Below are positions 27,671 to 63,268 of a DNA stretch of 64,000 nucleotides, in pieces. Position 1 is the first letter of the stretch; each line of letters starts with the position of its first letter. The notes below the pieces were generated by a model. The model had not been told where the DNA came from and did no database searches. It saw only the letters and a list, made by a program, of their open reading frames with translations. Source of the DNA: a virus. The translations under genes and the position numbers were made by a program. The stretch spans positions 1 through 64,000 of IMG/VR virus record IMGVR_UViG_3300037722_001025, one strand, 5' to 3'.

Positions 27671-28075
27671 TCAGAAACAGAACCAGTATCCACAAGCCGG
27701 GCAATTTACTCCTTCACCCATGAGTTGATAAAGCTTTGAACCACATTCAGGACACTTATCAGAATCATCAATAGGAGTAGAGGGAAGTCCCACATGTTCC
27801 AACATTGACGGAGGCAACATCTTGTCATCAATCACTACATCATATTGAGGTTTATCCATAATTAAACGGGTATATTTCACTCCATACTTTCGGAGCCAAT
27901 CAGTCGTTTTTCCTCTATCTTCTTCAAACCGAGCAGTGAAAAGAAGAATACTGTGACCAGCATCAAACAGCCGATTTACTCCTGCTATGTGAGAAGGTTT
28001 AGGTGTTCTGTTTTCGTAATCCCAGCCCTCAGTTTCAATGGTTAGGGTACCATCAATATCAATGGCATAAATCAT
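27671..28075 (-). CDS. HAD-family phosphatase with C-terminal zinc ribbon
   Basis: DIDGT, FTAR, KP...IDDK; CPECG...CPACG. Confidence 0.8.
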   Translation of the reverse strand: MIYAIDIDGTLTIETEGWDYENRTPKPSHIAGVNRLFDAGHSILLFTARFEEDRGKTTDWLRKYGVKYTRLIMDKPQYDVVIDDKMLPPSMLEHVGLPSTPIDDSDKCPECGSKLYQLMGEGVNCPACGYWFCF

Positions 28076-28087
28076 TTTATAACTCCT

Positions 28088-28744
28088 TTATAAGTATCCT
28101 ATTACAGCATCCATTATGGACTTGTTTCTTTCGGGTATGTATTTACCTTCCTTAGCAGATTTGTAGTATTCCCGCAATAATTGTATGTTGTAAAATTCAA
28201 TAGTTCTTCCTGCATTCGTCAAAGCAACCCACTTTCGAAAACAAGAGGGACATTTACCACAATAATTTGTGGATTGTTCACTGTAGCAGGACACTGTCCC
28301 CCACAGCAAGTCAATTTGAGGGGTGACATTTTTATTATACCAGATGATAATTTCCTCTTTTGTCATGTTCCAGAAAGGACTCATGACAGTTATAACCCGA
28401 TCAGATAGCTTTGTGAGTATCTTAGACATATAGCGAAAAGCATCAGGAGTTTTGTCGGAGACATCATCTCCTTTGATCCCAGCTATCACTATGACATCAT
28501 CATACTTCGAAGCTTCCATCGCAAGGTAGAGATTGCGATAAGGAATGAAAGCTTTTTCCCCGATCTGATTTTTACCTAGGTGTCTCAAGGAATAATCAAG
28601 AATGATATTTGGATCTATTCTTTGAATCACCCTAATTTCTTTTTCTGTGTAAGGTGTATCTAAAGGAAAATAGATTGTTTTGGGTTTACCGAGATAATGA
28701 TAAGCTACGAATGAATCAATACCGCCCGACAAAAGAAGTATCAC
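28088..28744 (-). CDS. queC: 7-cyano-7-deazaguanine (preQ0) synthase
   Basis: LSGGIDS PP-loop, IPYRN, SP..TKEEI, SCY...CGKCPSC. Confidence 0.88.
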   Translation of the reverse strand: MILLLSGGIDSFVAYHYLGKPKTIYFPLDTPYTEKEIRVIQRIDPNIILDYSLRHLGKNQIGEKAFIPYRNLYLAMEASKYDDVIVIAGIKGDDVSDKTPDAFRYMSKILTKLSDRVITVMSPFWNMTKEEIIIWYNKNVTPQIDLLWGTVSCYSEQSTNYCGKCPSCFRKWVALTNAGRTIEFYNIQLLREYYKSAKEGKYIPERNKSIMDAVIGYL

Positions 28745-28753
28745 CGCAATCTC

Positions 28754-29023
28754 CTATTTGATTCCTTCGAAGTTTAAACAAGCATCCAGCATAATAATTA
28801 TTTCCTCATTAATGCTGGTGCCATTCTTTTCCGCTGATTGTTTAATTCGATTAACCAATTTGAGATCCTCACTAATATCTACAGTAAGCACATGTTTGAG
28901 GTCTGGATAATAAATGAATCCACACATTTCACAGTAGGATTCATTTATTGTCCGATAAGAGGGGGCAACATAAACTGCCTTAGTGCTCATATTAGCACCA
29001 CATTTCAAACATATATCCATCAT
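28754..29023 (-). CDS. zinc ribbon plus Arc-like ribbon-helix-helix protein
   Basis: CxxC...CxxC then RIKQSAEKNGTSINEEI. Confidence 0.55.
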   Translation of the reverse strand: MMDICLKCGANMSTKAVYVAPSYRTINESYCEMCGFIYYPDLKHVLTVDISEDLKLVNRIKQSAEKNGTSINEEIIIMLDACLNFEGIK

Positions 29024-29239
29024 TCAACTTGGCCCTATTTTTGTTAAGTTCCAAGGTCGGTGTGCGACTCGACCTATTTTAGATTCAGTATCTACGGTTA
29101 CTGGTTCATATCCATCATACCCATAAATACCAACTACAACTCCCTCCATATAATGACGAACTATTTCCCCTTCAATGCATTCTAGATACCATACCCATTT
29201 AACTTTGTCTCCTATAGAAAATCTAAGTTTTGGGGACAT
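29024..29239 (-). CDS. hypothetical protein (SH3/KOW-like)
   Basis: FSIGDKV start; operon tiling. Confidence 0.5.
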   Translation of the reverse strand: MSPKLRFSIGDKVKWVWYLECIEGEIVRHYMEGVVVGIYGYDGYEPVTVDTESKIGRVAHRPWNLTKIGPS

Positions 29240-29677
29240 TTAGTTCTCCATTTTAATTTCTTGGTAACTTTTACCTAACCATCTTTTAACAGTATGCTTG
29301 TGAAAATTATATTTTCCCATCAATTCCTTTAGTGAAGATGAAGCCAATACAACTGCCCTTACTGCTTCTTCAGTCCACGTAACTCCTGCAATTTGTCTAT
29401 CTGGTAATGAAAATATTGGATCTTCTGTAACTTCCCTTTCAGAAAGAAAAGTAGAAAAACTTGGAGTTTTGACACCATTGATTTCGATTACAGCCAAACA
29501 GTTTGCACAGGAGGGTGATTTTATACTTTGGTAAAAAGAGCATTGCTCAGAGGTAATTCTGGCACTGAGGGAACATCTCTTGCGCTCCTTGAGTAAAGTT
29601 GGGCAATGTTCATGGATTGCTTCATAAGCTATTGGATCCATTACTTTATCCCTCCTTAAAAATTTTGGAAATATCAT
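29240..29677 (-). CDS. hypothetical protein, Cys-rich with C-terminal HTH-like segment
   Basis: Operon tiling; SLKELMGKYNFHKHTVKRWL. Confidence 0.5.
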   Translation of the reverse strand: MIFPKFLRRDKVMDPIAYEAIHEHCPTLLKERKRCSLSARITSEQCSFYQSIKSPSCANCLAVIEINGVKTPSFSTFLSEREVTEDPIFSLPDRQIAGVTWTEEAVRAVVLASSSLKELMGKYNFHKHTVKRWLGKSYQEIKMEN

Positions 29678-30277
29678 TTACACTAGCAAATTCACCGTGA
29701 TATTTTAAGGCAGCTTCATTATATACTTTTGCTGCTTCCTCCTTATTTTGAAAAAATCCTAAATTTATTCTTCTTCTTTCAATACTGATGCTAGCACACC
29801 ATTTTCTTCTTTGATTATCCCAAACAACTCCCTTGTAACCAGAAGTATTATTTTTATTAGTTGTTTTATTGTATAAATTTTCAGACCTAGTGCAAAATCT
29901 GAGATTTTTCTTCCTATTATCTAGCCTATTTTTGTTAATGTGGTCAATTTCTAATTTACCAGCTATGGGTGTAAAATCCATTATTAAATTGTGTAATTTA
30001 CCAATTATGTGATTAGATAGATACCCTTGATCAATACACCATTTAAACCCTTACATTGTTCTAAATCCTCTAAATCTATAATACCATAACCTGTTATATT
30101 TCCGTGTATGTCATAACATTCAATATTTATAAAATCCTCTCTGATCAGAAAATTATTAGGATCCCGAATTGTTCTTTCTAATATTTTACCATGGTATTTA
30201 ATTTGGTCATAATGCTTTTGGCAATAACCTTGAGTTCTGCTTTTATTATTGCATTTTTCAACTTTACAAAATTTCAT
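29646..30277 (-). pseudogene. HNH-AP2 homing endonuclease split by a -1 frameshift (pseudogene or programmed frameshift)
   Basis: 30005-30277 and 29646-29981 match the N- and C-halves of 27045-27596; frames join at GGGTTTAAAT (30041-30050). Confidence 0.75.
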
Positions 30278-30280
30278 GGT

Positions 30281-31276
30281 TTAACACTTGACCCCATGAA
30301 CATAGTCACTAAGTTTCAGACTCCCAGATTTCACACCATGAGCATCGATATGATGTGACCACACACATCCTGTACATTCAAATAGAGATTTAACCCCCCA
30401 ATATTCGGAGAATTCCTCAAATCTTTCATGCAATTCATTCAGGTAAAAATTTTTCTCCCCTTTTCTGTCCTGATAATCGTCGCAACAATATACTCGACCA
30501 TCACAATCGACAGTTACCCAGGCAGGGAAGTCTGGCTCTTTTGCACAATGCCAATCATAATTTCGAATCAGTTGGTGATCATTTTCTTTGAGCATGGAGA
30601 GATACTTCTTGCTGGAATGACAAAGGAAACCAGCATTTTTCATTTCCTCAACCTCTTCTAAAACTTCATCAAGAGCTGAAAAATCAGTAGGTCGGAAACT
30701 CAAATCCAAATCAACCGTCCTGACTTTGCTACCAGGTTGGCCCCTATCGTGATGAATGAGATCGAAGAATGTCCAGATGCCCATTTCTGACATCTGGTGA
30801 ATTGTGAATGGTAAACTCATGAAATTATTTCTCGTAAGAGTGACAATTATGGCAACGTCTCTCACCCTACCCAGACGTTGGAAGAATTGGAGACCTCTTA
30901 TTGCTTTGCTTGATTTTAAGGCACTATGCTGGTCAAGAGCAATCATGTCATAACTCATGGTAAGAGATTTTGCACCAGCCTTATGAAGTATCTCCAGCTT
31001 TCGCTTGAAGTCAGCAACAATACCACTTGATATGATGGTAGTGTGGATGCCTTGAGATTCTGTGTACCCTACTACTTCAGGAAGATTCTGAAAATCAGTC
31101 AGACATTCAGCTCCACAGAAGGCGGCGAAACCTGCCCCTAAAGCTTTGAGATTGTCTATCCCAGATTTCCAGAATTCAAGATTCTGGGAATTTCTTCTCC
31201 CATCTGCCATTGCACAATAGGAGCAGTGAACATTACAGGTTCGAGTCCACAGGATTTCAGCCTTAACTATCTGCAT
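30281..31276 (-). CDS. radical SAM protein with SPASM/twitch domain
   Basis: CNVHCSYC; C-terminal C...DGRVYCC...CTGC. Confidence 0.88.
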   Translation of the reverse strand: MQIVKAEILWTRTCNVHCSYCAMADGRRNSQNLEFWKSGIDNLKALGAGFAAFCGAECLTDFQNLPEVVGYTESQGIHTTIISSGIVADFKRKLEILHKAGAKSLTMSYDMIALDQHSALKSSKAIRGLQFFQRLGRVRDVAIIVTLTRNNFMSLPFTIHQMSEMGIWTFFDLIHHDRGQPGSKVRTVDLDLSFRPTDFSALDEVLEEVEEMKNAGFLCHSSKKYLSMLKENDHQLIRNYDWHCAKEPDFPAWVTVDCDGRVYCCDDYQDRKGEKNFYLNELHERFEEFSEYWGVKSLFECTGCVWSHHIDAHGVKSGSLKLSDYVHGVKC

Positions 31277-31294
31277 AATAATTATCCTTTGGAT

Positions 31295-31897
31295 TTAAAG
31301 AGGTTTCATAGAGAGATGAATGAGGGCCATTCCTTCAGCTCTAGTCACTCCATCCTCAAAAGAACCGTATACAGCAGAACTCACCATACCGGAATTATTG
31401 TATTGGCAAATTCCTCTGTTAGCCATACAACCATGAATAGCCCTCATAACTAGCATGGCTCCTCGGGGTTGCATGACTTCAACAAACCTATTAATTACTT
31501 GGTGACAGAGATTTTCTTGTAATTGGGGGCGTGCTGAATAGTGAGCAATTAGTCTTGCAGGCTTAGAAGCACCGACCAATTCTGATCGAACATCAATAAT
31601 ATAGTCGCCGGGAATATATAAGAACCAAGCCTTACCTGAGAAGGGCAAGAAGTGATGAGAACAGACAGAGGAAAAATGAATATTATCCATCATTGTTATT
31701 TGATTGTATTTTTCAGAATTTGGGAATTTGGAGAACGATTCTTCGGGGAATTCTTTGTTGACCGTATTAAACAACTCGTTGCAGTACATTTTGGCTATTC
31801 GTTTAGGTGTGTCAATGAGGTTGGGATCCTCCATATCAAAACCTAATCCTTCAGACATAAGCAAACCAAAATACTTTTCAACTAAAGCTTGATTCAT
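31295..31897 (-). CDS. folE: GTP cyclohydrolase I
   Basis: TPKRIAK, CSHHFLPF, GASK, RPQLQE, HGCM..RG. Confidence 0.95.
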   Translation of the reverse strand: MNQALVEKYFGLLMSEGLGFDMEDPNLIDTPKRIAKMYCNELFNTVNKEFPEESFSKFPNSEKYNQITMMDNIHFSSVCSHHFLPFSGKAWFLYIPGDYIIDVRSELVGASKPARLIAHYSARPQLQENLCHQVINRFVEVMQPRGAMLVMRAIHGCMANRGICQYNNSGMVSSAVYGSFEDGVTRAEGMALIHLSMKPL

Positions 31898-31934
31898 TTA
31901 TTCCTCCAATATATTTAAATTCTCTTCTATTTTG

Positions 31935-31963
31935 ATCATAACACGAAAAATAAAAACCTTGAA
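31935..31963 (-). promoter_or_regulatory. class II (middle) promoter for the folE-dpdA operon
   Basis: TTCAAG-17 nt (ending CGTGT)-TATGAT. Confidence 0.7.
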
Positions 31964-31982
31964 ATTATTTTTTTTCCACAAA

Positions 31983-32014
31983 AAGAGGTCAGAGTTGGTG
32001 TACTCTGACCTCTT
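31983..32014 (-). terminator. intrinsic terminator
   Basis: 13-bp stem AAGAGGTCAGAGT / ACTCTGACCTCTT plus T run on minus strand. Confidence 0.75.
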
Positions 32015-32040
32015 ACATTCATGAGTTGCAAGTTAAATAC

Positions 32041-32703
32041 TTACTCGGCAGGCGCCGGATCAGCAGGGGCCGGGGCAGCAGGGGTTTCTTTCGTTCCGAC
32101 GATACGCTCGACCTCGACAGCCGCTTCACCTTCGCCGACTTTCTCCTTCGTACGGGTGATCTTGACGCCTCTGTTGGCCTCGATAAATTTCACATGATTC
32201 GAAGCCCTGGACTGGGATACACCAGCTTTTTCGACCATCTCAGCGATGGTGGTACCAGCGGCAACCAGTTCGTCCATCGTATTGGACAGGGAGCCTTTGA
32301 CGGAGCCGAAGATGCCTTTTTCAATCGAAGAAGGCTTGCGCTCTTTGGGAGCTTTCGGGGGTTTCGGCTCTTTGACCGGCTTCGGTTCTTTGCCAGGTTT
32401 GGCTGCCTTCGGGGGTTTCGGCTCTTTGGCCGGTTTGGCTCCAGGAGAAACATCAGCTTTCACTTCGGGTTCCGGAGCAGGTGCTTCGTCGCCGAAAAGA
32501 AAATTGTACTGCTCAATCAGATTGGTAGTCAGTTTTCCAGCAGCTTCTTCGCTGAGGGCATCGACAGCACTACCGAAAGACTGGGCAAGAACTTCCTTGC
32601 TGACGCCGATGACTTTCAGTTTTTCTTCAATAAGAGCTAGTTCGTTGAATTCCTTGACAGTTTCTTTTAGTTTGACGAAATCGATTTTGTCGGGGGCTAC
32701 CAT
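32041..32703 (-). CDS. DNA-binding protein: Pro/Lys/Ala-rich linker plus C-terminal winged-helix-like domain
   Basis: KEPKPPKA repeats; TIAEMVEKAGVSQSRASNHVKFI HTH-like segment. Confidence 0.6.
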   Translation of the reverse strand: MVAPDKIDFVKLKETVKEFNELALIEEKLKVIGVSKEVLAQSFGSAVDALSEEAAGKLTTNLIEQYNFLFGDEAPAPEPEVKADVSPGAKPAKEPKPPKAAKPGKEPKPVKEPKPPKAPKERKPSSIEKGIFGSVKGSLSNTMDELVAAGTTIAEMVEKAGVSQSRASNHVKFIEANRGVKITRTKEKVGEGEAAVEVERIVGTKETPAAPAPADPAPAE

Positions 32704-32761
32704 AAAGCACTTCCTTTCTTAGATAGTTGTTGGGGTTAATAGAATACCGACAGAAAAATGA

Positions 32762-33037
32762 TTAATCCTGAACGTATTCTTTCAATTCTTTGGACGCCTT
32801 GAAATACGGTGCATTTTTGGCAGGAATCGTGAGAGCCTCTCCGGTCTGCGGATTTCGACCAGCTCGTTCTTCCCGCTTCTTGATACCGAAGCGACCGAAG
32901 CCGGCGACGTTTACATCTTCTTCTTGGTACATGCGCTCTTTGAGGACTTCAAAAACGGTGTTCACTACCGGGGTGACATCGACTTGAGTCCTGCTGGTAA
33001 GCTCAGCCACCTTTGCAATCAGTTCCGCTTTGTTCAT
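32762..33037 (-). CDS. hup: HU/IHF-family DNA-binding protein
   Basis: MNKAELI...GFGRF...RAGRNPQTGE...PYFKASKELK. Confidence 0.95.
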   Translation of the reverse strand: MNKAELIAKVAELTSRTQVDVTPVVNTVFEVLKERMYQEEDVNVAGFGRFGIKKREERAGRNPQTGEALTIPAKNAPYFKASKELKEYVQD

Positions 33038-33181
33038 GTTGGCTCCTTTGGGGTAAATGCAAGTTTATGTTTCTAACTGCCTACATATTTACTATATCAC
33101 AGAATTGCAGAAAAAAAAGAAAAAAATGCAATAAACGTTGATTTTTTTAAAAGGGTCTAAAATCTCTATGATTTCAGATAC

Positions 33182-33865
33182 TTAGAGGTCCTGATCTTCT
33201 TCCAAGGCAATAATTTTATGCAATTGGATATTTAGGACAACATCTTCCAATCGATATTTATCTATAAGGAGAACTAATTCCTTAGCTGTGATAGTTCCAC
33301 CTTCCATCGGAGAGAAAGCAAACCGAGCTTTGCACCCTAAAACCTGTAATTGTTGTTTATACCATATTGCTCTATCCATATCATAAAGACTTCCAATAAC
33401 AAACTTAAAATAATCTTTATGGGATAAGCACATTTCATGGTAGTGTTTTATAGGTAAGGAGTGTTTTTTCCCTAACTTTATATCCACCACAAAAGTTGCA
33501 AGACCGGCTAACCCGAGAGACGGTGCCCGAAAAGGAACTTCACCACTTGTTTCGATTGATATATAAAAACCTTCAATTGCAAGAGCTCTGATCAACAAAG
33601 TCAACTTTTTCATGTCTTGTTGAAGTGGTTCCCCTCCAGTTATGGTGATGTTCTTATTTCCTAACGCTATCACTCTAACCATGATATCATGAATACTCAT
33701 ATCTGTTCCTGATGCAGGGGAATTGGCGTATTTAGTGTCACAATAAGGACATGCTATGGTACACCCAGCAAATCTGATGAACGTACAAAAACTACCTTGA
33801 TTTCTATGACATACTTCACCATTGATACTGGGAAAAATACTGTAAACCTTCATTATATCTGGCAT
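33182..33865 (-). CDS. queE: 7-carboxy-7-deazaguanine synthase (radical SAM)
   Basis: IFPSINGE, FIRFAGCTIACPYCDT, ITGGEP, IETSG, QLHK. Confidence 0.93.
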   Translation of the reverse strand: MPDIMKVYSIFPSINGEVCHRNQGSFCTFIRFAGCTIACPYCDTKYANSPASGTDMSIHDIMVRVIALGNKNITITGGEPLQQDMKKLTLLIRALAIEGFYISIETSGEVPFRAPSLGLAGLATFVVDIKLGKKHSLPIKHYHEMCLSHKDYFKFVIGSLYDMDRAIWYKQQLQVLGCKARFAFSPMEGGTITAKELVLLIDKYRLEDVVLNIQLHKIIALEEDQDL

Positions 33866-33867
33866 CA

Positions 33868-34242
33868 CTACACCTCCCCATTCCATTCAGCAAAAGAGCC
33901 AGGGGATTCATACAGTCGAACTCTTCGGAGAATAACTTCCGGATAACGTCCATTTAAACCATTTTTAAGATGTTCAGCAATGTTAACCAACATGAGTTCT
34001 GCTGTGGGATTAGAGTAGATTTCATTCAGATACCGATGATCCAACGCATCTATAACCAAAGCATAGACCATCTTTTTGAGGACCATAAAATCTAAAACCA
34101 TTCCAGAATCTTCTTGAACAGGTCCCCAAACTTCTACTTCGAGAGTCCATTGGTGACCATGTAGATTCGCACAATGACCATCATAATTGGGTAATCTGTG
34201 GGCCGCATCAAAGGTGAAAGATTTGCATACTGATAGGTTCAT
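33868..34242 (-). CDS. queD: 6-carboxytetrahydropterin synthase
   Basis: FDAAHRL, CANLHGH, GMVLDF, LDH, PTAE, LYES. Confidence 0.95.
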   Translation of the reverse strand: MNLSVCKSFTFDAAHRLPNYDGHCANLHGHQWTLEVEVWGPVQEDSGMVLDFMVLKKMVYALVIDALDHRYLNEIYSNPTAELMLVNIAEHLKNGLNGRYPEVILRRVRLYESPGSFAEWNGEV

Positions 34243-34253
34243 AATGCCTCCTG

Positions 34254-35777
34254 TTAATGACCTTTGTTAAAGTGAGAATCAAGATGAGTTTGACCAAGAG
34301 CCAGAGATTGAAGTATTGTGCAATTATCACCTTCATGAAATTCTTGGTGACGATGAGCTAATAAGGCAGTTCTAAGAACACCTCTCTTTTTTTCATCTTT
34401 CGTTTGATTTAATGCGGCAAATACATCAACATGGGCTAACTTACCAATCCATTCTGCTAAGTCACTTTGATCCATATCAGCTTTGTATAATGATCCTCTG
34501 TTACCTTGACTTGCAGTAAACCATAACATGTGTCTACGGGCAGCAAGCGCAGCATTTTGCTTCCATAAAGCATCGATTCCAAAACGCTCATCCCCACCTT
34601 TACTTGAATGTTTACAAATATCAACATAGTCGAGAGCACCTACGTCGGGGATGAAGCCCTCCGTTTGCTCCAGTATGTCTAAATCTCTTTCGACATCATC
34701 TAAATCAGCAGAAAATCTAGGATAACACATTATCCTGATATTATCACCACATGTTTTGACAAACGCCTTGACTTTCTTGTGTACATTCTTGGGGGTGAAC
34801 TCAGGTTTCTCAATCGTTTCAAACCAGGTAGACATATCATATTGACCATCTTTTTTATCTTTGCAGTAGCAACAAACTTTATGGTTAATATCAGGTGAAT
34901 AAGCAGGAATTGATTCTTTACTTTCAGCAAGGGCAACACAGGTACCTGTACATGTTTTGAGGCTACAGATACCGAGTTGATTGTTGTAACAGTCAAATAC
35001 AGGTATTGTTGCTTCAGTGGCACCTGTAGGAGCATAGGCGGAGATTCTTTTCAAAATTCTTTCGTCCATTCCTACATCTTGCATCTCTAGAGAAACAAAT
35101 ACAGCCTTTAGTCCCAATACGGCTGCTACAATGACAGCTTCCTGCAACATCCACGTTTTCCCTCTCTTGAATGGAGCAAGGATAGCAACTAGCCAACCTC
35201 TTTGTAGGGGTCCATATAGTTCTCCTAAAGCCCCTGGGAATGTGAATATCCCTTGATTACGTTCATCAAATATGGCATTGACACTTTCAGTTGTAAGAGG
35301 GTTATGCCAGCGAGAAGTAAGTTTCATAACCTTTTTCATCTGGTTTAATTCTTCTTCTGCTTTATCAACTCTCCCTATATCTAGCATTTTTTGAGCAGTA
35401 CTAACCCTAACTTCTATCTCCCTCTTTCTGAAATACAACAAGGCTTGGTCCAGTATGTACTCATCATTTATACCTTGATCTTCGGTGTATTTCTTGCTGA
35501 GATTTAAAAGGAATGTTTCGATGATGTCAAGTTCAGCATCATCAAGGGTTTGTTTTTCAATAGTGAATATATCTTGGATGTGGTGTTTGGGAGCTTCCCC
35601 AAACTTGTCAAAGTAATCAAGCACCCACTTCATAATTACAGAAGCAAAGGTACTAACCATATATTTTCGGTCATATATGGGATATATTTCCTCAATAAAT
35701 TTTGTGGAAATAATCGATGCTGTTAGAATGTTATTTTCAATGGAATTATCCACCGATCTACGAACAATTTTAGCCAT
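34254..35777 (-). CDS. DnaB-like (SF4) replicative helicase with Cys-rich insertion
   Basis: Walker A APFKRGKT, SLEM, LDYVD, TASQGNR, DLAE. Confidence 0.85.
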   Translation of the reverse strand: MAKIVRRSVDNSIENNILTASIISTKFIEEIYPIYDRKYMVSTFASVIMKWVLDYFDKFGEAPKHHIQDIFTIEKQTLDDAELDIIETFLLNLSKKYTEDQGINDEYILDQALLYFRKREIEVRVSTAQKMLDIGRVDKAEEELNQMKKVMKLTSRWHNPLTTESVNAIFDERNQGIFTFPGALGELYGPLQRGWLVAILAPFKRGKTWMLQEAVIVAAVLGLKAVFVSLEMQDVGMDERILKRISAYAPTGATEATIPVFDCYNNQLGICSLKTCTGTCVALAESKESIPAYSPDINHKVCCYCKDKKDGQYDMSTWFETIEKPEFTPKNVHKKVKAFVKTCGDNIRIMCYPRFSADLDDVERDLDILEQTEGFIPDVGALDYVDICKHSSKGGDERFGIDALWKQNAALAARRHMLWFTASQGNRGSLYKADMDQSDLAEWIGKLAHVDVFAALNQTKDEKKRGVLRTALLAHRHQEFHEGDNCTILQSLALGQTHLDSHFNKGH

Positions 35778-56375: not shown

Positions 56376-56663
56376 AACGTTCTCCTTAGGAAAGAGTGAT
56401 CCGGTGGAAGTGACCTCCCGTCGTGATTTGTACATACTACATTTCACCTTCCTGTAATTTCATTTATACTCCTCAATAAAAGTGTAGCAGATCGGACAGC
56501 ACAACCCAAAGGAACGAATGCTAAGCGGTGGACGTATAAGCTGATCGCGCTTGGTAAACGTTTTACAATTAGGGCAGGTAACGGAGTCCTCGTTCGCGTT
56601 ATCTGAATCGATCGGTAATTTAGAAGCCATAACGTTCTCCTTAAGAAAGAGTGATCCGGTGGA
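56366..56663. repeat. 43-bp direct repeat (56366-56408 and 56621-56663) containing RBS and start codon
   Basis: TAGAAGCCATAACGTTCTCCTTA(G/A)GAAAGAGTGATCCGGTGGA, one mismatch. Confidence 0.9.
56460..56630 (-). CDS. small zinc-ribbon protein (56 aa, not in ORF track)
   Basis: MASKLP...CPNC...CPIC; SD AAGGAG. Confidence 0.6.
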   Translation of the reverse strand: MASKLPIDSDNANEDSVTCPNCKTFTKRDQLIRPPLSIRSFGLCCPICYTFIEEYK

Positions 56664-56799
56664 TGTTCAAGTAACAGACATAAGACAGACCCATCAAGGC
56701 AACAACTTCATTGTACTGTTTGACAGTACGTGGGTTAACTTTACCATGTTTGCAACGCAACAGAGCTTTCGAGTAATTGGGACATGCGGAGCAGTTCAT
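56641..56799 (-). CDS. small Cys-rich protein (52 aa, not in ORF track)
   Basis: MNCSACPNY...; SD AAGGAG; ATGA overlap. Confidence 0.55.
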   Translation of the reverse strand: MNCSACPNYSKALLRCKHGKVNPRTVKQYNEVVALMGLSYVCYLNIHRITLS

Positions 56800-56942
56800 G
56801 AGGGATTCTCCTTGCTGTTGATAACTTCATGATAAATTTGAGCAGCCACAGCGTAAGAACAATTGCCTAGGCGCATGATGAATTGAATCTTTAGATTTCT
56901 TAGATCTATGGCTTCAACAAATCTTTTGTCTTCATCTGTCAT
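56796..56942 (-). CDS. small protein (48 aa, not in ORF track)
   Basis: SD AAGGAG; promoter GTGACA-17-TATACT at 56992-57020. Confidence 0.55.
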   Translation of the reverse strand: MTDEDKRFVEAIDLRNLKIQFIMRLGNCSYAVAAQIYHEVINSKENPS

Positions 56943-57059
56943 TTGTCAACTCCTTGTCAGTGTTCACGGTGAAAACTTCTTTTACAGTATCAGTATAGCA
57001 AAGGTATTTGCTCCTGTCACAAATAAGTTGATTCCACTGCATTTTTATTCGCCAGCTGG

Positions 57060-57360
57060 CATTCGGAGCCATGCGGTGTAGGTGGGAAGGTTTCACATTC
57101 CCACGGGCGGCTCCAGGCATTCGGAAGGACACGGCCACATTCCCAACCTCACATTCCCACGGACGGCTCCACATTCCCACGGGCACGGCTGGTGGACCCG
57201 AGGCTCACATTCCCACGGGCATCTCCTCGGGTCCACCGCTCCACACGGCTCCTCCTAGGGTGGCGGCTCCTCGGAGGACATTCAGGCGTTGGCGGTGTAG
57301 AGGTACAGTATTCAAAGGAATGGCCCCGGAGCAGGCCCGGGGCGAGGGAAAGGGTTCTAG
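57060..57360. repeat. GC-rich cluster of CACATTCCCA(CGG) and CGGCTCC repeats with a 13-bp inverted repeat
   Basis: CACATTCCCA at 57094, 57136, 57150, 57170, 57206; GGTGGACCCGAGG / CCTCGGGTCCACC at 57191-57237. Confidence 0.85.
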
Positions 57361-57544
57361 GTGAGGCACTTCAGCAGTGCCAGCAATACGACGAATGCAG
57401 ATATATGATTAATCATATATCACGTCATATCAGTGAAGCAAGAAAAACAAAAAGAGCAGTCTGCAACGAGCACAGAACGAAACAAACAAGCTTGTTTTTG
57501 AGAGATTCTTTGCATGTAGTGACTTGCATAATTATCATCTTTCT

Positions 57545-57584
57545 ATGCTTGCAAGCTTGATATGTGAATCAAGCTTGCAAGCAT
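57545..57584 (-). terminator. terminator hairpin built without GG/CC
   Basis: 17-bp perfect stem ATGCTTGCAAGCTTGAT / ATCAAGCTTGCAAGCAT just after the stop codon. Confidence 0.75.
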
Positions 57585-57593
57585 CAGATTGTT

Positions 57594-58088
57594 TTATTCA
57601 GCGACGACGAACTTGAAACGCTTGTTATCAGAAGTATCAGTCACACGTTTTGCATGTGTACAGTTTTTCATGATGTAAACGCAGTGTGACTTGATACGTG
57701 CTTCTGAACATTCTGTAATTTTCATCAGCTCTTTCATGCTGTGAAATTCTTCAAGCGCGCGATCAATACGATAATTCTGTCGAGTGCTTTCGAGAAGTCT
57801 GCAAAACTTCGAAGTCGTTGAAGTCGACGCAGATTGATTTCTTTTCACTTGTGCATTGTCAATCATGCGTTGCTCGATAGCTTGCACTTGCTCTTCACGA
57901 GTCATGCAAGCAAACTGTTCAGCGTCGATGTTGAGCAGTTGAGCATGATTTTTTCTGTCGAGTGCTTGAGTATCATAAGCTTGATTCATCTTGAGTGCTT
58001 CACTGTGAATCAGATACGAAGTGATCTTGCAGTGAGCTGAAAGCTTGACAGTCTTCTGAGTGTTGTTCTTTTTAGATTGCTTTTTCAT
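57594..58088 (-). CDS. first early gene: Gly/Pro/Trp-free winged-helix-like DNA-binding protein
   Basis: Paralog of the 48071-48823 C-domain; start 58088 preceded by GAGAGAGAAAG; own promoter and terminator. Confidence 0.7.
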   Translation of the reverse strand: MKKQSKKNNTQKTVKLSAHCKITSYLIHSEALKMNQAYDTQALDRKNHAQLLNIDAEQFACMTREEQVQAIEQRMIDNAQVKRNQSASTSTTSKFCRLLESTRQNYRIDRALEEFHSMKELMKITECSEARIKSHCVYIMKNCTHAKRVTDTSDNKRFKFVVAE

Positions 58089-58148
58089 TAACAATCTTCT
58101 TTCTCTCTCATTAATGAGAGCTGATTGAAGCATCATTGCTTCATTATC

Positions 58149-58176
58149 AATATAGCATAGTGCAAGCTATGTGCAA
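58149..58176 (-). promoter_or_regulatory. class I (early) promoter inside the GG/CC-free tract
   Basis: gcTTGCAC-16 nt (ending TGC)-TATATT. Confidence 0.7.
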
Positions 58177-58221
58177 GCAAACAAATCATTTTTTTCAGAA
58201 AAAGAGCAAATCGATTTAAGA

Positions 58222-58327
58222 GCTGTTTTTGTGCGAAATAGAGCTATTTCTAGAAAAGCATAGCAACTCAAGCACATATCACTAATGAGAGCTTAAATTG
58301 CTGTTTTTGTGCGAAATAGAGCTATTT
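58222..58327. repeat. 28-bp perfect direct repeat (58222-58249, 58300-58327)
   Basis: GCTGTTTTTGTGCGAAATAGAGCTATTT twice. Confidence 0.9.
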
Positions 58328-58518
58328 TGTGATTTGAGATAGAATCTTTTTTTCACTGCTGAGATCAATCGTAGTTATCATATACAAGCAGATCACGGGA
58401 TTATATTTGCTTAATAAATATAAAAATGTAATGATTTCAAGTACTTAGCCCCCCTCGATCTATCTTCATTAGAAGATTTTTTGATGTGAACGTAGGACCC
58501 AACCATAATTTTTTCCAT

Positions 58519-58602
58519 ATTTACGGAAGTTGGTCACCTTTCCTCTTAAAAGCTCAGTAATTATCATAAATTTACAGAAGTTGGTCACCTTTCCTCTTAA
58601 AA
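58519..58602. repeat. 33-bp direct repeat (58519-58551, 58570-58602)
   Basis: ATTTAC(G/A)GAAGTTGGTCACCTTTCCTCTTAAAA, one mismatch. Confidence 0.9.
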
Positions 58603-58824
58603 TCGCTGATATCTGCCAACTGTTATCTGGTATCTGAAATCTGCCTCCCTATACAGGTACAAAAATATCGCCGACTCAGATTTCGAATTTATAGCAAAGG
58701 TAAGTGTATCGCCTCGAAGCCCCAACTGTAGGCATTAGCAGAATTCCCAGGTAAAAAGAGCCAAAATAAATATGCTTGACATACATTACAGAACCATAAT
58801 AGGATGAACCAAAAGGAGGATAAA

Positions 58825-59391
58825 ATGGCACTCAAAGAGCCCGAAGAATCTAAAGAGTATCACAAACCAGTAATCGACATTGCTAACAATTCGATGATGA
58901 AAGGTGAAGTACGAGAAGGGAAGCAACTGATAGCTTGGGATTCCATCCAAGATTGTAATACCGAAAGATGCCCCATAGGTAAAACCTGCTTGTATGCGAG
59001 GATATCGAAGGAGAAGTGCGCTTTGCAGGTAGGATACCTGCAAAACCTCACTGATACGATATTCTCTACCTACAGATACCTTGATGAAACCTCGATGTTT
59101 AAGATAGGTATGCACCTCATACCTTTGTACTCCCAGCTTTGTCGCCAGAAGATAGTTGAAAAATCAGTAGGACGATTAGCATATGAGGACGAGAAGGGAC
59201 GAACTCATATCCACCCAATATATAAAGAGATACGTGAGACCATGAAGGTCATAACTATCTTGTGGCGGGAAATGGGATTCCCAGTAGCAATGAATCCTGA
59301 CGTGCCTACAGGTAAAGCAGGATTCGGGGATGCCTCACATTATGAGACGATATCTCGGGAAGCTGACAATAAGAGGAACATTGTCCGATAA
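58825..59391 (+). CDS. putative terminase small subunit
   Basis: First gene of the packaging operon; G...IHPIY.E motif resembles P27-type TerS; SD AAGGAGG. Confidence 0.5.
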   Translation: MALKEPEESKEYHKPVIDIANNSMMKGEVREGKQLIAWDSIQDCNTERCPIGKTCLYARISKEKCALQVGYLQNLTDTIFSTYRYLDETSMFKIGMHLIPLYSQLCRQKIVEKSVGRLAYEDEKGRTHIHPIYKEIRETMKVITILWREMGFPVAMNPDVPTGKAGFGDASHYETISREADNKRNIVR

Positions 59392-59657: not shown

Positions 59658-60094
59658 TGAGCTTTCCTAGATATCCTGAACGGTGCTTGCGGGGGAATTC
59701 AAGATGTCAGCCCTATAGCCAGATCGCTTCAAACGTAGGACTTGTAGAGGATCAAAGCTTTTTCTGTTGCGGTAAGCATGATGGAACTATGGCACCTGTA
59801 GCCCAGGACAAATATACACTTTGCTTCAAAGGACCTCATCGGGACGACATGGTTTTCATGGATCGTAGGGACTTGGTAGATCAAGCTCATGTAATCCTTG
59901 CTGCTCTCAGCTTCATAGAGCTAGATATGATGGAAGAGAAAGATGAGGAAATAACCCATCTGAAGTCCGTGATATCGGGACAGCGGATAGCAATATCCTA
60001 TGCCACTATCCTAAATAACGGACTTTCAAACAACGAGCCTGTAGATAGGATTCTGAGAGAAGTATACCTTAAATACCAAGGAGAAGACGAATGA
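59657..60094 (+). CDS. hypothetical protein
   Basis: Start re-assigned to 59657 (AGGAGG). Confidence 0.55.
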   Translation: MSFPRYPERCLRGNSRCQPYSQIASNVGLVEDQSFFCCGKHDGTMAPVAQDKYTLCFKGPHRDDMVFMDRRDLVDQAHVILAALSFIELDMMEEKDEEITHLKSVISGQRIAISYATILNNGLSNNEPVDRILREVYLKYQGEDE

Positions 60095-60657
60095 AGAAAA
60101 TCTTGCTGTTATTCTCGGTATTTCTGTTCTTGACTTCCAGCTGTTTTGCAGAAGGGTATAACCGCGAGGAGTTCGGAGGATGGATTGATGCTGATGGTGA
60201 CGGACAAGATACCAGAGAGGAAGTGCTGATAGAGGAATCTCTTATTCCTTTGACTTATTCCTTAAGAAAAGCATGGGAACTCTTCCCTATATTCGGGCTG
60301 TTCTATTGTGAACTGACAGGACAATATGAGACGGATCCAGGACTTCTGGACATCGATCACCGAGTTCCTCTCAAAGAAGCCTATGAATCAGGAGCCAAGA
60401 ACTGGCCGAAAGAAAAGAAAGTTGCCTACGCTAATTATCTAGATAACCCCAATCACCTTGTAGCTGTTATGGCAGGAGCTAATCGATCAAAAGGATCGAA
60501 GGACGTAGCTTTGTGGTTACCTATCGTAAATAAGACGGAATACATGGAGAAGTGGATAGAAATTAAGGAAGAATGGAATCTCTGTTATGACCCTGCCGAA
60601 GAAATCGTCTTATCAAATCATGGATTTACGGTAACTAACATCTGCTCTGATGAGTGA
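60091..60657 (+). CDS. secreted HNH nuclease (DUF1524-like)
   Basis: Signal peptide; YNREEFGGW.D.DGDG.DTR, DIDHRVPL.EA, NRSKGSK. Confidence 0.75.
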   Translation: MKKILLLFSVFLFLTSSCFAEGYNREEFGGWIDADGDGQDTREEVLIEESLIPLTYSLRKAWELFPIFGLFYCELTGQYETDPGLLDIDHRVPLKEAYESGAKNWPKEKKVAYANYLDNPNHLVAVMAGANRSKGSKDVALWLPIVNKTEYMEKWIEIKEEWNLCYDPAEEIVLSNHGFTVTNICSDE

Positions 60658-60666: not shown

Positions 60667-60882
60667 ATGATACGAATAATCCTGGCATATTTCGGTTATG
60701 CTAAAATTCCTGTAAAAGTTGTTCAGCTCTCAATCATGCAAGAGGAATATATTAAAAAATTAATAGATTTGAGGGATTCAGAAGATTGGAAACGACTATT
60801 TGAATCCCATTTAGAAGGTCAAAAGACACTAACTCACTTTCTGAGGTCTTGTAGATTATTAGATAGGGGTAGTAAGAAATGA
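60667..60882 (+). CDS. hypothetical protein
   Basis: SD GAGGA; ATGA overlap with TerL. Confidence 0.5.
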   Translation: MIRIILAYFGYAKIPVKVVQLSIMQEEYIKKLIDLRDSEDWKRLFESHLEGQKTLTHFLRSCRLLDRGSKK

Positions 60883-62807
60883 AACCAGTCCTGCTACGCA
60901 GAAAACCAGCACCTATCACACAGGAAGAGGTATATGATCCTTCTCTGTATGATCCTGATAAATTACCCCCATATCAGATATATGAACCTTTGGACTATCG
61001 TGATGGTCCTGAGGGCTTTATCAAGTGGTGTGAAGATAAGGTCTGTATCCCGATCTATCCTGAAGGAAGTGATATTGCCCAATGGGTCAGTATTAAGGAT
61101 TTGAGTCCTGACATCCACCCTAAATCAGGAAAAAGCTACGATCATATCTGGCAGATGCAGAAGGTAGAGATTCGTAAGTGCCTGAGAATGGTCAACGGGC
61201 GTTTTATTTATCGTCTGATCATACTGAGCTGGATGCGGGGGGAAGGAAAGTCACTCCTAGCTTGCCTTATTCAGTTATGGAAGTTTTTTAACTGGCCAAA
61301 GCAACAGATTGTCCTCGGAGCGAATAGTAAAGACCAGATTCGTTTCGTCCATTATGATATTATGAGGGACATCATCAAAAACAGTCCAACCCTGCTTGCA
61401 ATATGTGGGGATAGGAACGTTCAGGAGAAAGAAATACGCTTGCGGGATGCTTCAGGTAACGTTTCGTCAGTTTTGCGTCCCATATCGTCTTTTTCGGGTA
61501 TTGTGTCGAATATTACAGGATACACGTTTTCTGAGATATTTGACATGAAGAATCCGAAGTTTTTTACACAGTTAGACGGGTCTATAAGGAACATTCCGAA
61601 CGCTTTAGGGGTTATTGACTCTACAGTTTCCCCAAAAACCCACGTTTTATATAAAATGTACCAATCTTTTGTAGCTAGGCGCACTAAAACGCTCTTTTTC
61701 TCGTACCGATGCTCCAAAGAGGCTTCAATTGCTGATTATTGGAATCCAAATATGGACCAACAGCAGTTGGACGACTATAAAGAGAAATTCCCTCTAGGGG
61801 ACTTCGAAAAGTATTTCATGAATGTCTGGGGAAGTAATGCCCAGCAAGTTTTTACCGCAGAAATGCTTGAAGGGATGAATTATATAGGAATAAATAATAA
61901 AGTCACCCCTTACAGCGATATTAGAGAACACATTGCAAAGAAACTCAAGCTCAAACAGTCGGTAGAGGATCTAGTTCAGAGAGGAATACCTTGTGATTTT
62001 GAGACAGAACTTAAGGAAGTCAATTTACTGCAATCCCAATTGGTACCCGTAGAAAACATTTACCGACTGCGAGATAAGCATGGAATATCTTGTTCCGCTA
62101 CTCTTGCAGACCTAGATAAATTGGGGGAAATCTATGACACTAACTGGGCCGTCCTCGCAGGAATCGACCGAGCAGATCCACTCAAAAAAGACCGCACGTC
62201 GGCGAGAACTATTGTTACGATTACGGCAAAAGGTCTACCTGGAAGTAAATCAAATATCTTGGCTGCTGACGGTGGTAACCCTCAGTATATGTATATACTC
62301 CTTAATATCGTTCATGTTTCTGATAGTTTACTTGAGGGAATTAAAGAGGCGATTCTGGAAGCCCATGAAACGTTCGACGGAGTAGATGCAATATGTGGGG
62401 AGCGGTGGGGTATCTGGGACATGGCTCCTTGGTGTGATGAGCATGGAATTGTGTTTGAACCTATACACCCTTCTTATGATAAGCAGAAAGCCGCGTTTGC
62501 AGAGCTTCATGGGGCGATCAGTACGGGACGATTCAAGACACCACCCATAGCTGTATGGGGAAGCAAGAATGAAGACATTTTGAAGGAAGAAGCAGAAATC
62601 TTCTATCATGATGATGAGAAAAGATGGTTCGGATCACCCGAAAAGATGGAGAAAAATGGAGTACAGGACGATGTTATGTTTGCTGAAGGATGGGGCATCT
62701 ATGGAGGCCGACTATTCAAAGCTGACACTTTTAAAGAACGGAACCACAAGATATTTTTTGGTACTATGGTCAGAAACAAAGCACTCCTCACTTCAAATAT
62801 GAAATAG
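60879..62807 (+). CDS. terL: terminase large subunit
   Basis: Adenine-binding WQ.Q, Walker A MRGEGKS, ANSKDQ, ST coupling motif, RNase H-like nuclease AGIDRA...DDVMFA. Confidence 0.8.
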   Translation: MKPVLLRRKPAPITQEEVYDPSLYDPDKLPPYQIYEPLDYRDGPEGFIKWCEDKVCIPIYPEGSDIAQWVSIKDLSPDIHPKSGKSYDHIWQMQKVEIRKCLRMVNGRFIYRLIILSWMRGEGKSLLACLIQLWKFFNWPKQQIVLGANSKDQIRFVHYDIMRDIIKNSPTLLAICGDRNVQEKEIRLRDASGNVSSVLRPISSFSGIVSNITGYTFSEIFDMKNPKFFTQLDGSIRNIPNALGVIDSTVSPKTHVLYKMYQSFVARRTKTLFFSYRCSKEASIADYWNPNMDQQQLDDYKEKFPLGDFEKYFMNVWGSNAQQVFTAEMLEGMNYIGINNKVTPYSDIREHIAKKLKLKQSVEDLVQRGIPCDFETELKEVNLLQSQLVPVENIYRLRDKHGISCSATLADLDKLGEIYDTNWAVLAGIDRADPLKKDRTSARTIVTITAKGLPGSKSNILAADGGNPQYMYILLNIVHVSDSLLEGIKEAILEAHETFDGVDAICGERWGIWDMAPWCDEHGIVFEPIHPSYDKQKAAFAELHGAISTGRFKTPPIAVWGSKNEDILKEEAEIFYHDDEKRWFGSPEKMEKNGVQDDVMFAEGWGIYGGRLFKADTFKERNHKIFFGTMVRNKALLTSNMK

Positions 62808-62815: not shown

Positions 62816-63268
62816 ATGAACTTTTGTTGGGTTAAGAAAAAAGTATTACTTCTTATGAAGGAAGAAGGATGGAAGAAGTTTCCAAATGAAACTGGTGGTA
62901 TTTTGCTAGGTTATCGAAAAGATCGTTCAGCCGTAGTGACTCAATTAGTTGGTCCTGGTCCTTTAGCCAAACATGAACAGTTTGGATTTACTCCAGATTA
63001 TGGATTCCATATGTCAGAAGTGGATAGAATATTTGTAGAATCAGAAGGAACTGAAATTTATTTGGGTGATTGGCATACCCATCCTAAAGGATCTACAGAA
63101 TTAAGTGATTTGGATATAAAATGCCTTGATACGGTAGCAAAATATAAAGAGGCTTATAATCCCAATCCTCTGATGCTCGTTTTAGGTGGGAATCTAGATC
63201 GTTTGGGTGTGTATGGTTACTCTAAAGAACGAAAAGTGACAGGTTTACCATATGTTCTTTTCAGTTAA
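62816..63268 (+). CDS. stand-alone JAB/MPN (JAMM) metalloprotease
   Basis: ETGGILLG and intact JAMM motif GDWHTHP...LSDLD. Confidence 0.88.
   Translation: MNFCWVKKKVLLLMKEEGWKKFPNETGGILLGYRKDRSAVVTQLVGPGPLAKHEQFGFTPDYGFHMSEVDRIFVESEGTEIYLGDWHTHPKGSTELSDLDIKCLDTVAKYKEAYNPNPLMLVLGGNLDRLGVYGYSKERKVTGLPYVLFS

Follow-up and report, generated by a model that had tools for sequence, protein, structure and literature searches.

A conserved GG/CC-free gene unit at the early/packaging gene junction of a phage, and its possible role as a leading cassette

The window analyzed here comprises 64,000 nucleotides (positions 1 to 64,000 of the IMG/VR record IMGVR_UViG_3300037722_001025) of the 93,021-bp genome of an uncultured sediment phage. 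At the junction between its leftward block of early genes and its rightward block of packaging genes lies a tract free of GG and CC (57381-58397), which spans a whole predicted transcription unit together with its control region. The tract holds the first gene of the early block, encoding the 164-aa protein P0001 (57594-58088, minus strand), and abuts the terminase genes, as an earlier note made from the sequence alone had placed it. On the packaging side, two 33-nt direct repeats detected by repeat scan (58519-58602) separate the tract from the first gene of the rightward block (58804-59391, plus strand); no family match was found for this gene, its position fits a small terminase, and it is kept in three relatives (G002, G005, and G007). 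The large terminase (TerL; 60879-62807, plus strand) was recognized by its matches to phrog_9 and phrog_2. On the early-gene side, the tract is flanked by a non-coding repeat array dense in GG and CC (57060-57370), in which a 23-nt unit (core CACATTCCCACGG) occurs four times, together with an inverted repeat of 13 bp and a GC hairpin; the early genes beyond this repeat border have a promoter-like site of their own. An E. coli Chi sequence at 57188 was dismissed, as its four copies in the genome are at chance level, and an Rfam search of 56500-59000 returned only a chance miRNA match.

Several candidate control elements were identified within the tract. A sequence read by eye at 58146-58181 on the minus strand (TTGCAC, a 16-nt spacer, and an extended -10 element, TGcTATATT) may serve as the sigma-70 promoter of P0001; its -35 element is weak, and a consensus promoter scan missed it. 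The 5′ leader of the gene carries a perfect 16-nt palindrome, CTCTCATTAATGAGAG (58105-58120; repeat scan), which is operator-like and lies beside a GG-free ribosome binding site, and an imperfect second copy is located at 58279-58293. The repeat scan also identified two 35-nt direct repeats, 91% identical and 78 bp apart, upstream of the candidate promoter (58215-58327); these account for the 28-bp repeats reported in the earlier note, which are present as direct repeats of 28-35 nt at 58215-58249 and 58293-58327. The distal end of the tract has a perfect 22-nt palindrome (57400-57421; a 100% self-match to the opposite strand). Ten nucleotides past the stop codon of P0001, a perfect 17-bp inverted repeat with a 6-nt loop (57545-57584) forms the stem that had been taken for a terminator. 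The hairpin is present as described; however, the T-run beside it is on the plus-strand side and not on the strand of the P0001 gene, so its role as a terminator for a minus-strand gene is uncertain, and a protein-binding palindrome is also possible. In a rough check of the claim that most other genes use an AAGGAG(G)-type ribosome binding site, GGAG, GAGG, or AGGA was found upstream of 76 of the 182 ORFs of at least 80 aa.

Translation of 57594-58088 bore out that P0001 is free of Gly, Pro, and Trp. The protein was assigned to no family in Pfam or PHROG at E < 0.05, Pfam MarR/HTH membership was not supported at the sequence level, and the PDB profile matches were discarded as spurious matches to repeat proteins. 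In the structure model, pLDDT was above 90 for residues 100-164, the predicted secondary structure (H94-111, H118-125, H129-142, E146-150, and E158-162) agreed with the H-B-H-H-B-B order of a winged helix, and the top Foldseek matches were MepR, ZitR, and MarR (E 4e-3 to 4e-2, probability ~1). The modeled layout of long N-terminal helices followed by a C-terminal winged-helix domain suggests that P0001 is a coiled-coil/winged-helix DNA-binding protein. Its family was found to consist of 59 cluster representatives, about half of which contain Gly, Pro, or Trp. Across the same relatives, P0001 identity was 15-37% compared with about 75% for TerL, a difference which indicates that P0001 evolves much faster than TerL, as host-interaction genes do. 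DNA and protein searches with P0001, the tract, and TerL found no match among GenBank phages, and peptide patterns did not detect P0001 in IMG/VR.

Dinucleotide counts confirmed the absence of both GG and CC that the earlier note had reported, as a single gap of 1017 bp (57380 to 58397). The second-longest GG/CC-free gap was 73 bp, whether the window or the full genome was considered, and no other dinucleotide pair displayed a comparable gap in the 93,021-bp genome. From base composition, 72 occurrences of GG plus CC were expected in the tract, in line with the dozens that had been anticipated, and none was observed; 2000 shuffles gave a mean of 71.9 (sd 6.7, minimum 50), while the remaining 1017-bp segments of the genome averaged 97 (minimum 53). 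A Poisson-type estimate put the chance of such a gap in the genome at ~1e-38. The GG/CC-dense flank was likewise borne out, with 23-27 occurrences per 100 bp at 57060-57370 compared with ~9 elsewhere, and no genome-wide avoidance of GG was detected. The G+C content of the tract, 38%, is close to the genome mean, GC and CA/TG steps are enriched, and GA occurs 78 times. Avoidance of restriction sites in general was ruled out as the cause, because short palindromes lacking GG and CC are enriched rather than avoided in the tract (79 of 4 nt compared with 48 expected, and 20 of 6 nt compared with 10.7 expected, five of the latter being AAGCTT).

Relatives were obtained by ORF comparison and protein searches with TerL as the anchor, and dinucleotide counts, which the earlier note had proposed as a check, were made for the genome and these relatives. 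Exactly one GG/CC-free tract was found in each of the three complete genomes of the clade (1017, 1114, and 688 bp, the next gap being ~70 bp), and dozens of partial relatives, with TerL identities down to ~50%, were found to have a word-free tract. Its position was always 1-3.5 kb upstream of TerL. When a helicase was used to find relatives, a single-protein scan gave no matches and an alignment-based scan was successful; a 72-kb genome that has this helicase in common (G018) had no word-free tract. The content of the tract differed among the relatives, with unrelated ORFs on either strand. The DNA context of P0001 homologues that contain Gly, Pro, or Trp was also examined, in contigs L125 and L126, and in L125 a family member located 600 bp outside the tract was found to carry 41 GG/CC. 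Thus, the ban is positional and not intrinsic to the protein, as judged from the different ORFs that fill the tract and from the Gly, Pro, Trp, GG, and CC present in the P0001 family outside it. On these comparisons, we take the tract to be maintained by selection rather than by chance, and the data support the view that it is a complete, putatively early, unit under constraint at the DNA level.

The banned word was found to vary by lineage, with (i) GGN in the studied phage; (ii) GGB/VCC in G007 and L042; (iii) GGA/TCC in L142 and L193; and (iv) AGA plus GAG in G017 (where B is C/G/T and V is A/C/G). The G007 tract, which is 2 kb in length and at the equivalent position, bans GGB/VCC only, and that of the more distant phage G017, also 2 kb, is free of AGA/GAG. 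Switches between these dialects were rapid among close relatives, and judging from the sequences the words appear to vary in the way that enzyme specificities do. In G007, GGB was also depleted two-fold throughout the genome (O/E 0.32-0.60, ~0.45), over the whole length and in all three codon frames, with GGA enriched; this depletion of GG words was absent from the DpdA-bearing genomes G000 (the studied phage), G002, and G005. An oxidation sink, in which GG serves as a hole trap and the GG-dense flank as the sink, was ruled out since the GGB dialect tolerates abundant GGA. A mutational footprint, left by a context-specific cytosine deaminase acting on CC on both strands of a frequently single-stranded segment, would account for the two main classes of words, as GG and GA contexts are classic deaminase footprints. 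We find this explanation very improbable, however, as the edges of the tract are sharp, the ORF and control elements are intact and conserved, the G+C content and the enrichment of GC and CA/TG do not resemble plain C-to-T decay, and the ban survives deep divergence with different genes inside.

The earlier note had linked the tract to modification of the phage DNA, and the genes on which it drew are present in the window. Profile matches identified a 7-deazaguanine module on the minus strand at 26189-34242, with genes for a DpdA-like protein (26189-27097; phrog_887, 4e-47), an HNH protein (27045-27596), QueC (28088-28744), a radical SAM protein (30281-31276), FolE (31295-31897), QueE (33182-33886; phrog_2076), and QueD (33868-34242); QueC, FolE, and QueD scored above their Pfam cut-offs. 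G002 and G005 carry the module in synteny. At the syntenic site of G007, a 72%-complete contig, the whole que/dpdA module is missing and a DNA methylase (N6_N4) gene is present. The banned word could accordingly be the target of the phage's own marking enzyme, DpdA here and the methylase in G007, with a cassette that must stay unmodified, for instance to be used by unmodified host RNA polymerase or regulators or to be expressed independently of modification. Several observations speak for this possibility: dialect and module change together at one locus (GGN with que/dpdA in G000, G002, and G005, and GGB with the N6_N4 methylase in G007), the studied genome does not avoid GG as a whole, and a reader encoded by the phage would explain rapid switches of dialect among close relatives. 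In addition, known DpdA motifs are equally short and, like the banned words, centered on G, being GA in phage Iggy and GA plus GGC in CAjan (PMC10484667, PMC7544227), two systems that the module here resembles in its DpdA and FolE/QueD/QueE/QueC set. Unlike the present phage, however, Iggy and CAjan, the two phages whose DpdA motifs have been measured, both lack a kb-scale tract devoid of these motifs, even though 97% of the GA sites of Iggy are modified and CAjan is modified too; target sites are plentiful in their early genes, which carry modified sites. Early genes can therefore be expressed despite DpdA modification, which weakens the proposed link to DpdA. We also know of no way in which 7-deazaguanine could stop transcription over the length of a gene. 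Further evidence against self-modification is provided by G017, in which no DpdA was found despite its AGA/GAG-free tract, and by the genome-wide depletion of the banned word in G007, which is unexpected for a phage's own protective mark. We therefore regard self-modification avoidance as possible yet doubtful. The specific inference that GG is the context in which this DpdA modifies G, and that the purpose of the tract is to remain unmodified, was left unsupported, given the G007 tract without the module and the absence of motif-free tracts from Iggy and CAjan. The earlier note had held that relatives lacking dpdA with the same tract would favor avoidance of a defense, and G007 answers to this in part: its tract is at the same position, but the word is altered to GGB/VCC. 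That the G007 genome, which lacks DpdA as far as its 72%-complete contig shows, is depleted of the word and the three DpdA-bearing genomes are not fits better with modification as a cover against an outside reader, although this contrast between DpdA-bearing and methylase-bearing genomes is effectively n = 1 and can be read either way.

A position at the end of the genome was examined through the contig ends of the relatives, 10 of 27 of which were located within the tract and another 9 within 650 bp beyond it (19/27 in total). As these ends pile up in or next to the tract, it is plausible that the tract lies at or near a physical end of the DNA, as the earlier note had supposed; the clustering could instead reflect hypervariability rather than termini. 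The stretch itself was found as contigs in four sediment or soil DNA runs, with no RNA run listed as containing it, and one 32-kb contig crosses the tract and the terminase genes uninterrupted; this contig lends no support to an end at this site, although it fits concatemers, permutation, or terminal repeats. The tract might be all or part of a direct terminal repeat, or else the segment that is packaged last, with a ban imposed by the terminase, end duplication, or ejection; for example, repeat copies produced by fill-in synthesis during packaging would not undergo post-replicative modification and would have to lack sites intrinsically. This explanation draws on the adjoining packaging genes, on contig ends that cluster at both edges of the tract (in the 91-kb contig L197, 32 bp separate the contig end from the outer edge of the tract), and on the annotated location of T5 first-step DNA in the terminal repeat. 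It was judged quite unlikely, as the circular overlap of the assembly is elsewhere (1/93021) and the model names no factor that reads the word.

The explanation we favor, tentatively and at a probability of roughly 0.4, is that the tract is a leading cassette similar to the first-step DNA of phage T5, kept invisible to a DNA-cutting or nicking factor that reads a short word. In this model, an immediate-early control cassette at the packaging/early gene junction, probably at or beside a physical end, would consist of the promoter-operator region, a fast-evolving coiled-coil/winged-helix DNA-binding protein, and a strong hairpin, and purifying selection would purge GG and CC so that an enzyme acting on DNA at a GG-type word of 2-3 nt finds no site. 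The enzyme would most likely be hostile, cutting frequently or nicking, and would come from the host or a rival element. The cassette would be read before the counter-measures of the phage exist, and hence it alone would have to lack sites in its own sequence; the remaining DNA would be covered otherwise, by 7-deazaguanine here and by two-fold depletion of the word plus methylases in G007. The alternative offered in the earlier note, that the first-entering DNA avoids a putative GG/CC-reading defense, fared better than its DpdA inference. Several points weigh against a leading cassette: (i) a host with a GG/CC-reading enzyme would need to shield its own DNA; (ii) a two-step entry would be modeled purely on the analogy to T5; and (iii) if 7-deazaguanine masks GG elsewhere, the same masking would be expected to serve for the tract. 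We know of no enzyme of host or phage that reads GG/CC alone. The nicking/methylase pairs of chlorella viruses (e.g., Nt.CviPII at CCD) are examples of virus-associated enzymes that read 2-3 nt and in which modification protects the viral DNA; however, these are viruses of eukaryotic algae, and the specificities match neither GGN nor GGB.

In phages T5 and BF23, the genes expressed first, among them one for a DNA-binding protein, occupy a short segment that leads the DNA and beyond which lies a non-coding border rich in repeats; host nucleases, CRISPR, and Ssp can halt these phages only when their sites are in this first-step DNA, which is selected to be site-free (PMC10644984). The tract, with 0 GG/CC in 1017 bp, is site-free in the same sense and differs in the kind of word, since the T5 segment, which is ~10 kb in length, lies in the terminal repeat and has a normal GG/CC content, is devoid of particular sites of 4-8 nt rather than of a dinucleotide. 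T5 A2 was found to be unrelated to P0001 (hhalign probability of 0.1% for the P0001 family alignment against A2). Avoidance of restriction sites or PAMs is similar in that short recognized words are removed, and G007 displays the classic genome-wide under-representation; by comparison, such avoidance is usually statistical, genome-wide, and directed at 4-8 nt, whereas the present phage excludes a 2-nt word completely from one kilobase and forgoes three amino acids in doing so.

A narrower form of defense avoidance is that the tract lacks the PAMs of CRISPR-Cas types that read CC or GG (CC for type I-F, NGG for Cas9, and the CCN types), so that a first-expressed and possibly anti-CRISPR-associated unit escapes targeting and spacer sampling. 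The ban is strand-symmetric and matches a 2-nt PAM exactly, and the unit resembles acr-aca units in its small fast-evolving gene, helix-turn-helix-type regulator, and palindromic operators. T5 provides a precedent, as it evades CRISPR unless the target is in first-step DNA (PMC10644984). Nonetheless, we consider this explanation unlikely: GG/CC agrees with type I-F and NGG, but the GGB/VCC, GGA-only, and AGA/GAG dialects fit no known PAM sets, the genome-wide GGB depletion of G007 is not a usual product of PAM avoidance, and selection per PAM would be weak unless entry is truly two-step.

The total ban of a two-letter word over a gene unit, with three amino acids given up and deep conservation, points to very strong selection per site, and therefore to a GG/CC reader outside the catalogues of defense or modification enzymes; literature searches found no published account of phage gene units that lack a dinucleotide. 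If the reader is hostile, these findings would reveal a new type of phage-host conflict and would provide a simple sequence signature for the first-expressed (anti-defense or takeover) genes of uncultured phages. If it is instead the phage's own enzyme, the banned word would reveal the specificity of DpdA or a methylase straight from the sequence. The lineage-specific wording (GGN, GGB, GGA, and AGA/GAG) puts the question within reach of comparative genomics and recoding experiments. More speculatively, and with considerable doubt on our part, many unrelated tailed phages may keep a first-expressed cassette of ~1 kb without one word of 2-3 nt, against widespread undescribed enzymes that act on DNA at the dinucleotide scale (a host defense, or an enzyme that the phage uses for host shutoff in combination with base modification); the cassette would have to be immune whatever its modification state, and 7-deazaguanine and short-motif methylation would answer the same reader.

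The order of elements at the locus is a site-free unit, a repeat-rich non-coding border, and then the remaining early genes. The GG/CC-rich array beside the tract may be the counterpart of the repeat-rich border of T5, its injection-stop region, and could be bound by the cassette's own protein. GG/CC-rich repeat arrays were found at the equivalent place in the relatives and are lineage-specific, and a strain variant of the studied phage differs within the 57060-57370 array by an 18-bp deletion and several SNPs.

The complete absence of GG and CC from positions 57381-58397 (1017 bp), as reported in an earlier note, was fully confirmed. The next-longest gap without either dinucleotide was 73 bp, both within the window and across the full 93,021-bp genome of this phage (G000), and a genome-wide count revealed no comparable gap for any other dinucleotide pair. 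From base composition 72 GG plus CC were expected in the tract and none was observed; 2000 shuffles of the tract gave a mean of 71.9 ± 6.7 (minimum 50), and the remaining 1017-bp windows of the genome averaged 97 (minimum 53). The G+C content of the tract was 38% compared with a genome mean of 41%, and compensating enrichment was found in GC, CA/TG, and AG/GA steps. The tract is kept by strong selection, and a mutational footprint is a very improbable cause of the missing words. Short palindromes free of GG/CC were commoner than expected inside the tract, which indicates that the ban falls on the dinucleotide itself and not on restriction-type sites generally. The early-gene flank (57060-57370) was very dense in GG/CC, as described before, with 23-27 per 100 bp. 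As far as our literature searches reach, a dinucleotide-free phage gene unit is undescribed in print.

The tract was found at the exact divergence point of (i) a minus-strand block of early and replication genes, running leftward over about 2-58 kb; and (ii) a rightward block from 58804 with the large terminase gene TerL (60879-62807), the portal, and structural genes, in agreement with its proposed location between early genes and packaging. Its sole ORF (57594-58088, minus strand) encodes a 164-aa protein, P0001, whose translation indeed lacks Gly, Pro, and Trp. A perfect 17-bp hairpin (57545-57584) lies 10 nt past the P0001 stop; the stem is as the earlier note described it, but its T-run is on the plus-strand side, such that a terminator role for P0001 is not certain. 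The tract also has palindromes of 22 nt (57400-57421) and, in the P0001 5′ leader, of 16 nt, the latter with an imperfect second copy; two 35-nt direct repeats lie farther upstream of this leader. A candidate sigma-70-type promoter with an extended -10 was read by eye at about 58146-58181 and was not reported by a consensus promoter scan. Beyond the tract is a 300-bp non-coding array in which a 23-nt repeat occurs four times, together with an inverted repeat and a GC hairpin; a promoter-like site (57020-56992) for the remaining early genes follows. A strain from a second sediment sample carries eight substitutions and an 18-bp deletion in this GG/CC-rich array (57199-57309), yet is nearly identical in the tract. 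P0001 matched no family in Pfam or PHROG. Its structural model, built with 11 homologues, has an N-terminal pair of long helices and a C-terminal winged-helix domain at pLDDT above 90; the best structural matches were consistently to MarR-type DNA-binding domains, although at weak E-values.

Relatives were collected by TerL as 78 loci from IMG/VR and 80 loci from JGI metagenomes. Highly significant GG/CC-free tracts (gap E-values 1e-26 to 1e-104) were detected upstream of TerL, at a distance of 1-3.5 kb, in loci that include L006 (956 (+294) bp), L007 (1146 bp), L008 (1056 bp), L083 (genome G002, 1114 bp), L043/L044 (1187 bp), L053 (808 (+340) bp), L057 (1041 bp), L020 (798 bp), L076 (genome G005, 688 bp), L125/L126 (1262 bp), L133 (781 bp), L143 (828 bp), L204 (1073 bp), and L197, where the longest was found (2304 bp, L197:32-2336). 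All three complete genomes (G000, G002, and G005) have exactly one tract apiece, and the TerL tree shows the trait distributed across most branches of the clade. Tract edges are sharp; on the early-gene side, the flank usually consists of lineage-specific repeats rich in GG/CC.

The banned word itself was found to vary. In G007, a 60-kb contig with a TerL 51% identical, the longest GG/CC-free stretch is just 206 bp; at the same relative position, a 1975-bp tract (L096:10031-12006) has zero GGC, GGG, and GGT on both strands and holds 110 GGA/TCC. The same GGB/VCC ban extends over 1490 bp in L042, L142 and L193 ban GGA/TCC alone, and the wording can differ between close TerL relatives. A more distant phage, the 61-kb contig G017, has only the replication helicase and PolA in common with G000, and no DpdA was found in it. 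At its own early/late junction is a 2-kb tract (L117:13326-15277, corresponding to G017 33326-35277) without AGA/TCT (about 100 expected) or GAG/CTC (about 53 expected), in which TC remains almost exclusively as TCG; the ban there parallels that on GG/CC but centres on GA. Word-free leading cassettes thus exist in several wordings, which would be expected of an enzymatic reader with evolving specificity.

Judged by sequence comparison, the constraint is tied to DNA position rather than to the encoded protein. In the closest relatives (L006, L007, L008, and G002) the tract is filled by P0001 homologues, all without Gly, Pro, or Trp, that are 15-37% identical to P0001 compared with about 75% for TerL; in other sub-clades it is filled by unrelated ORFs, some on the opposite strand. 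When 1.8 billion representatives were searched with a profile, 59 clusters fell in the P0001 family, with the three residues missing in about half of the clusters and present in about half. A natural control for the positional ban is provided by L125/L126, in which a family gene (L125:5212-5607) lying some 600 bp away from the local tract (6218-7480) has 41 GG/CC and normal Gly and Pro.

The earlier note had tentatively attributed the tract to 7-deazaguanine modification by DpdA. The FolE, QueD, QueE, and QueC genes and a DpdA-like transglycosylase were recovered at 26-34 kb, together with a second radical-SAM protein. An HNH endonuclease ORF (27045-27596) and the DpdA-like gene overlap at the start of the latter; in both G002 and G005 related HNH copies occur at several sites, and the ORF is therefore probably a mobile element of homing type within the module. 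Co-occurrence of tract and dpdA held in G000 and in G002 and G005, which have the module at the same site and a complete GG/CC ban, but failed in G007 with its GGB-type tract. In the interval flanked by the syntenic helicase and clamp genes, G007 has an N6_N4 DNA methylase gene (L097:13628-14722) in place of the module, with a second such gene elsewhere, and neither DpdA, FolE, nor QueC was found in this 72% complete contig. In the phage Iggy, the DpdA motif was measured as GA, and 97% of these sites are modified (PMC10484667); it has no motif-free tract (longest GA/TC-free gap 171 bp), nor does CAjan (motifs GA and GGC), and DpdA target sites abound in the early genes of both. The last 500 bp of Iggy (L206:10128-10628, or Iggy 60128-60628), a divergent early control region, has 10 GA/TC compared with about 48 in typical windows, a local partial loss far short of a full ban. 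Taken together, G007 with a tract but no module, and Iggy and CAjan modified yet tract-less, speak against the tract as an outcome of DpdA; they suggest that it is independent of DpdA, and that DpdA modification would not in general demand an unmodified early cassette. Genome-wide, GGB is about two-fold depleted and GGA enriched in G007 (O/E 0.44-0.48 and 1.79, respectively), in each of the three codon frames and uniformly over the contig (L095-L097), whereas G000, G002, and G005 show no genome-wide depletion of their banned word, a difference consistent with modification serving to shield DNA from an outside reader. Since this contrast involves one DpdA-less genome, the reverse interpretation, in which the word is a target of the phage's own modification and is avoided by the cassette, remains a serious if rather doubtful rival.

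Whether the tract marks a DNA end was addressed by contig ends. A 32-kb Logan contig spans the tract and terminase genes unbroken, which is compatible with terminal repeats, concatemers, or permutation. For 27 tract-bearing contigs the upstream end is a genuine contig end: it falls inside the tract in 10, within 650 bp past the outer edge in 9, and farther away in 8; L197, a 91-kb metagenome contig, ends 32 bp from this edge and L043 80 bp. Such clustering hints either at the edge of a repeat or a physical end, or at a hypervariable spot that breaks assembly; a terminal-repeat or packaging constraint is a quite improbable cause of the ban. In T5 and BF23, restriction-modification, CRISPR, and Ssp act only through sites in the first-step-transfer DNA (PMC10644984), and a repeat-rich non-coding region lies between this DNA and the remaining genome (PMC10644984; T5 annotation). 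The order is similar here: a site-free unit with a predicted DNA-binding protein, a repeat array, and then other early genes. The T5 first-step region, unlike the tract, shows an ordinary frequency of GG/CC, and T5 A2 is no relative of P0001. By analogy, the tract may function in the way first-step DNA does without belonging to that family. Avoidance of CRISPR PAMs is an unlikely explanation; our leading one, at a probability of roughly 40%, is that the cassette escapes a hostile DNA-cutting or nicking reader of short words by a first-step-like logic, with a small share of the odds left to a cause other than those named here. Our own tests establish the conservation within this clade, the varied wording, and the weakness of the DpdA link.

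The DNA derives from sediment metagenomes, and no related isolated phage was identified in GenBank by DNA or TerL. The ends of G000 (1-150 and 92870-93021) repeat each other over about 150 bp with one mismatch, which indicates a circular or permuted assembly although the record is labelled linear. The replication and repair set includes PolA, clamp, clamp loader, RecA-like, gp32-like, and SbcCD-like proteins, a flap nuclease, and a ligase; PolA, a family A DNA polymerase (20718-23390), has an N-terminal domain of the uracil-DNA-glycosylase superfamily. A 188-aa protein (60091-60657), encoded after the putative small terminase and before TerL, has a signal-peptide-like N-terminus and a weak match to GmrSD_C (His-Me finger nuclease), and immediately past TerL a Prok-JAB (MPN-type) domain protein is encoded (62816-63268).
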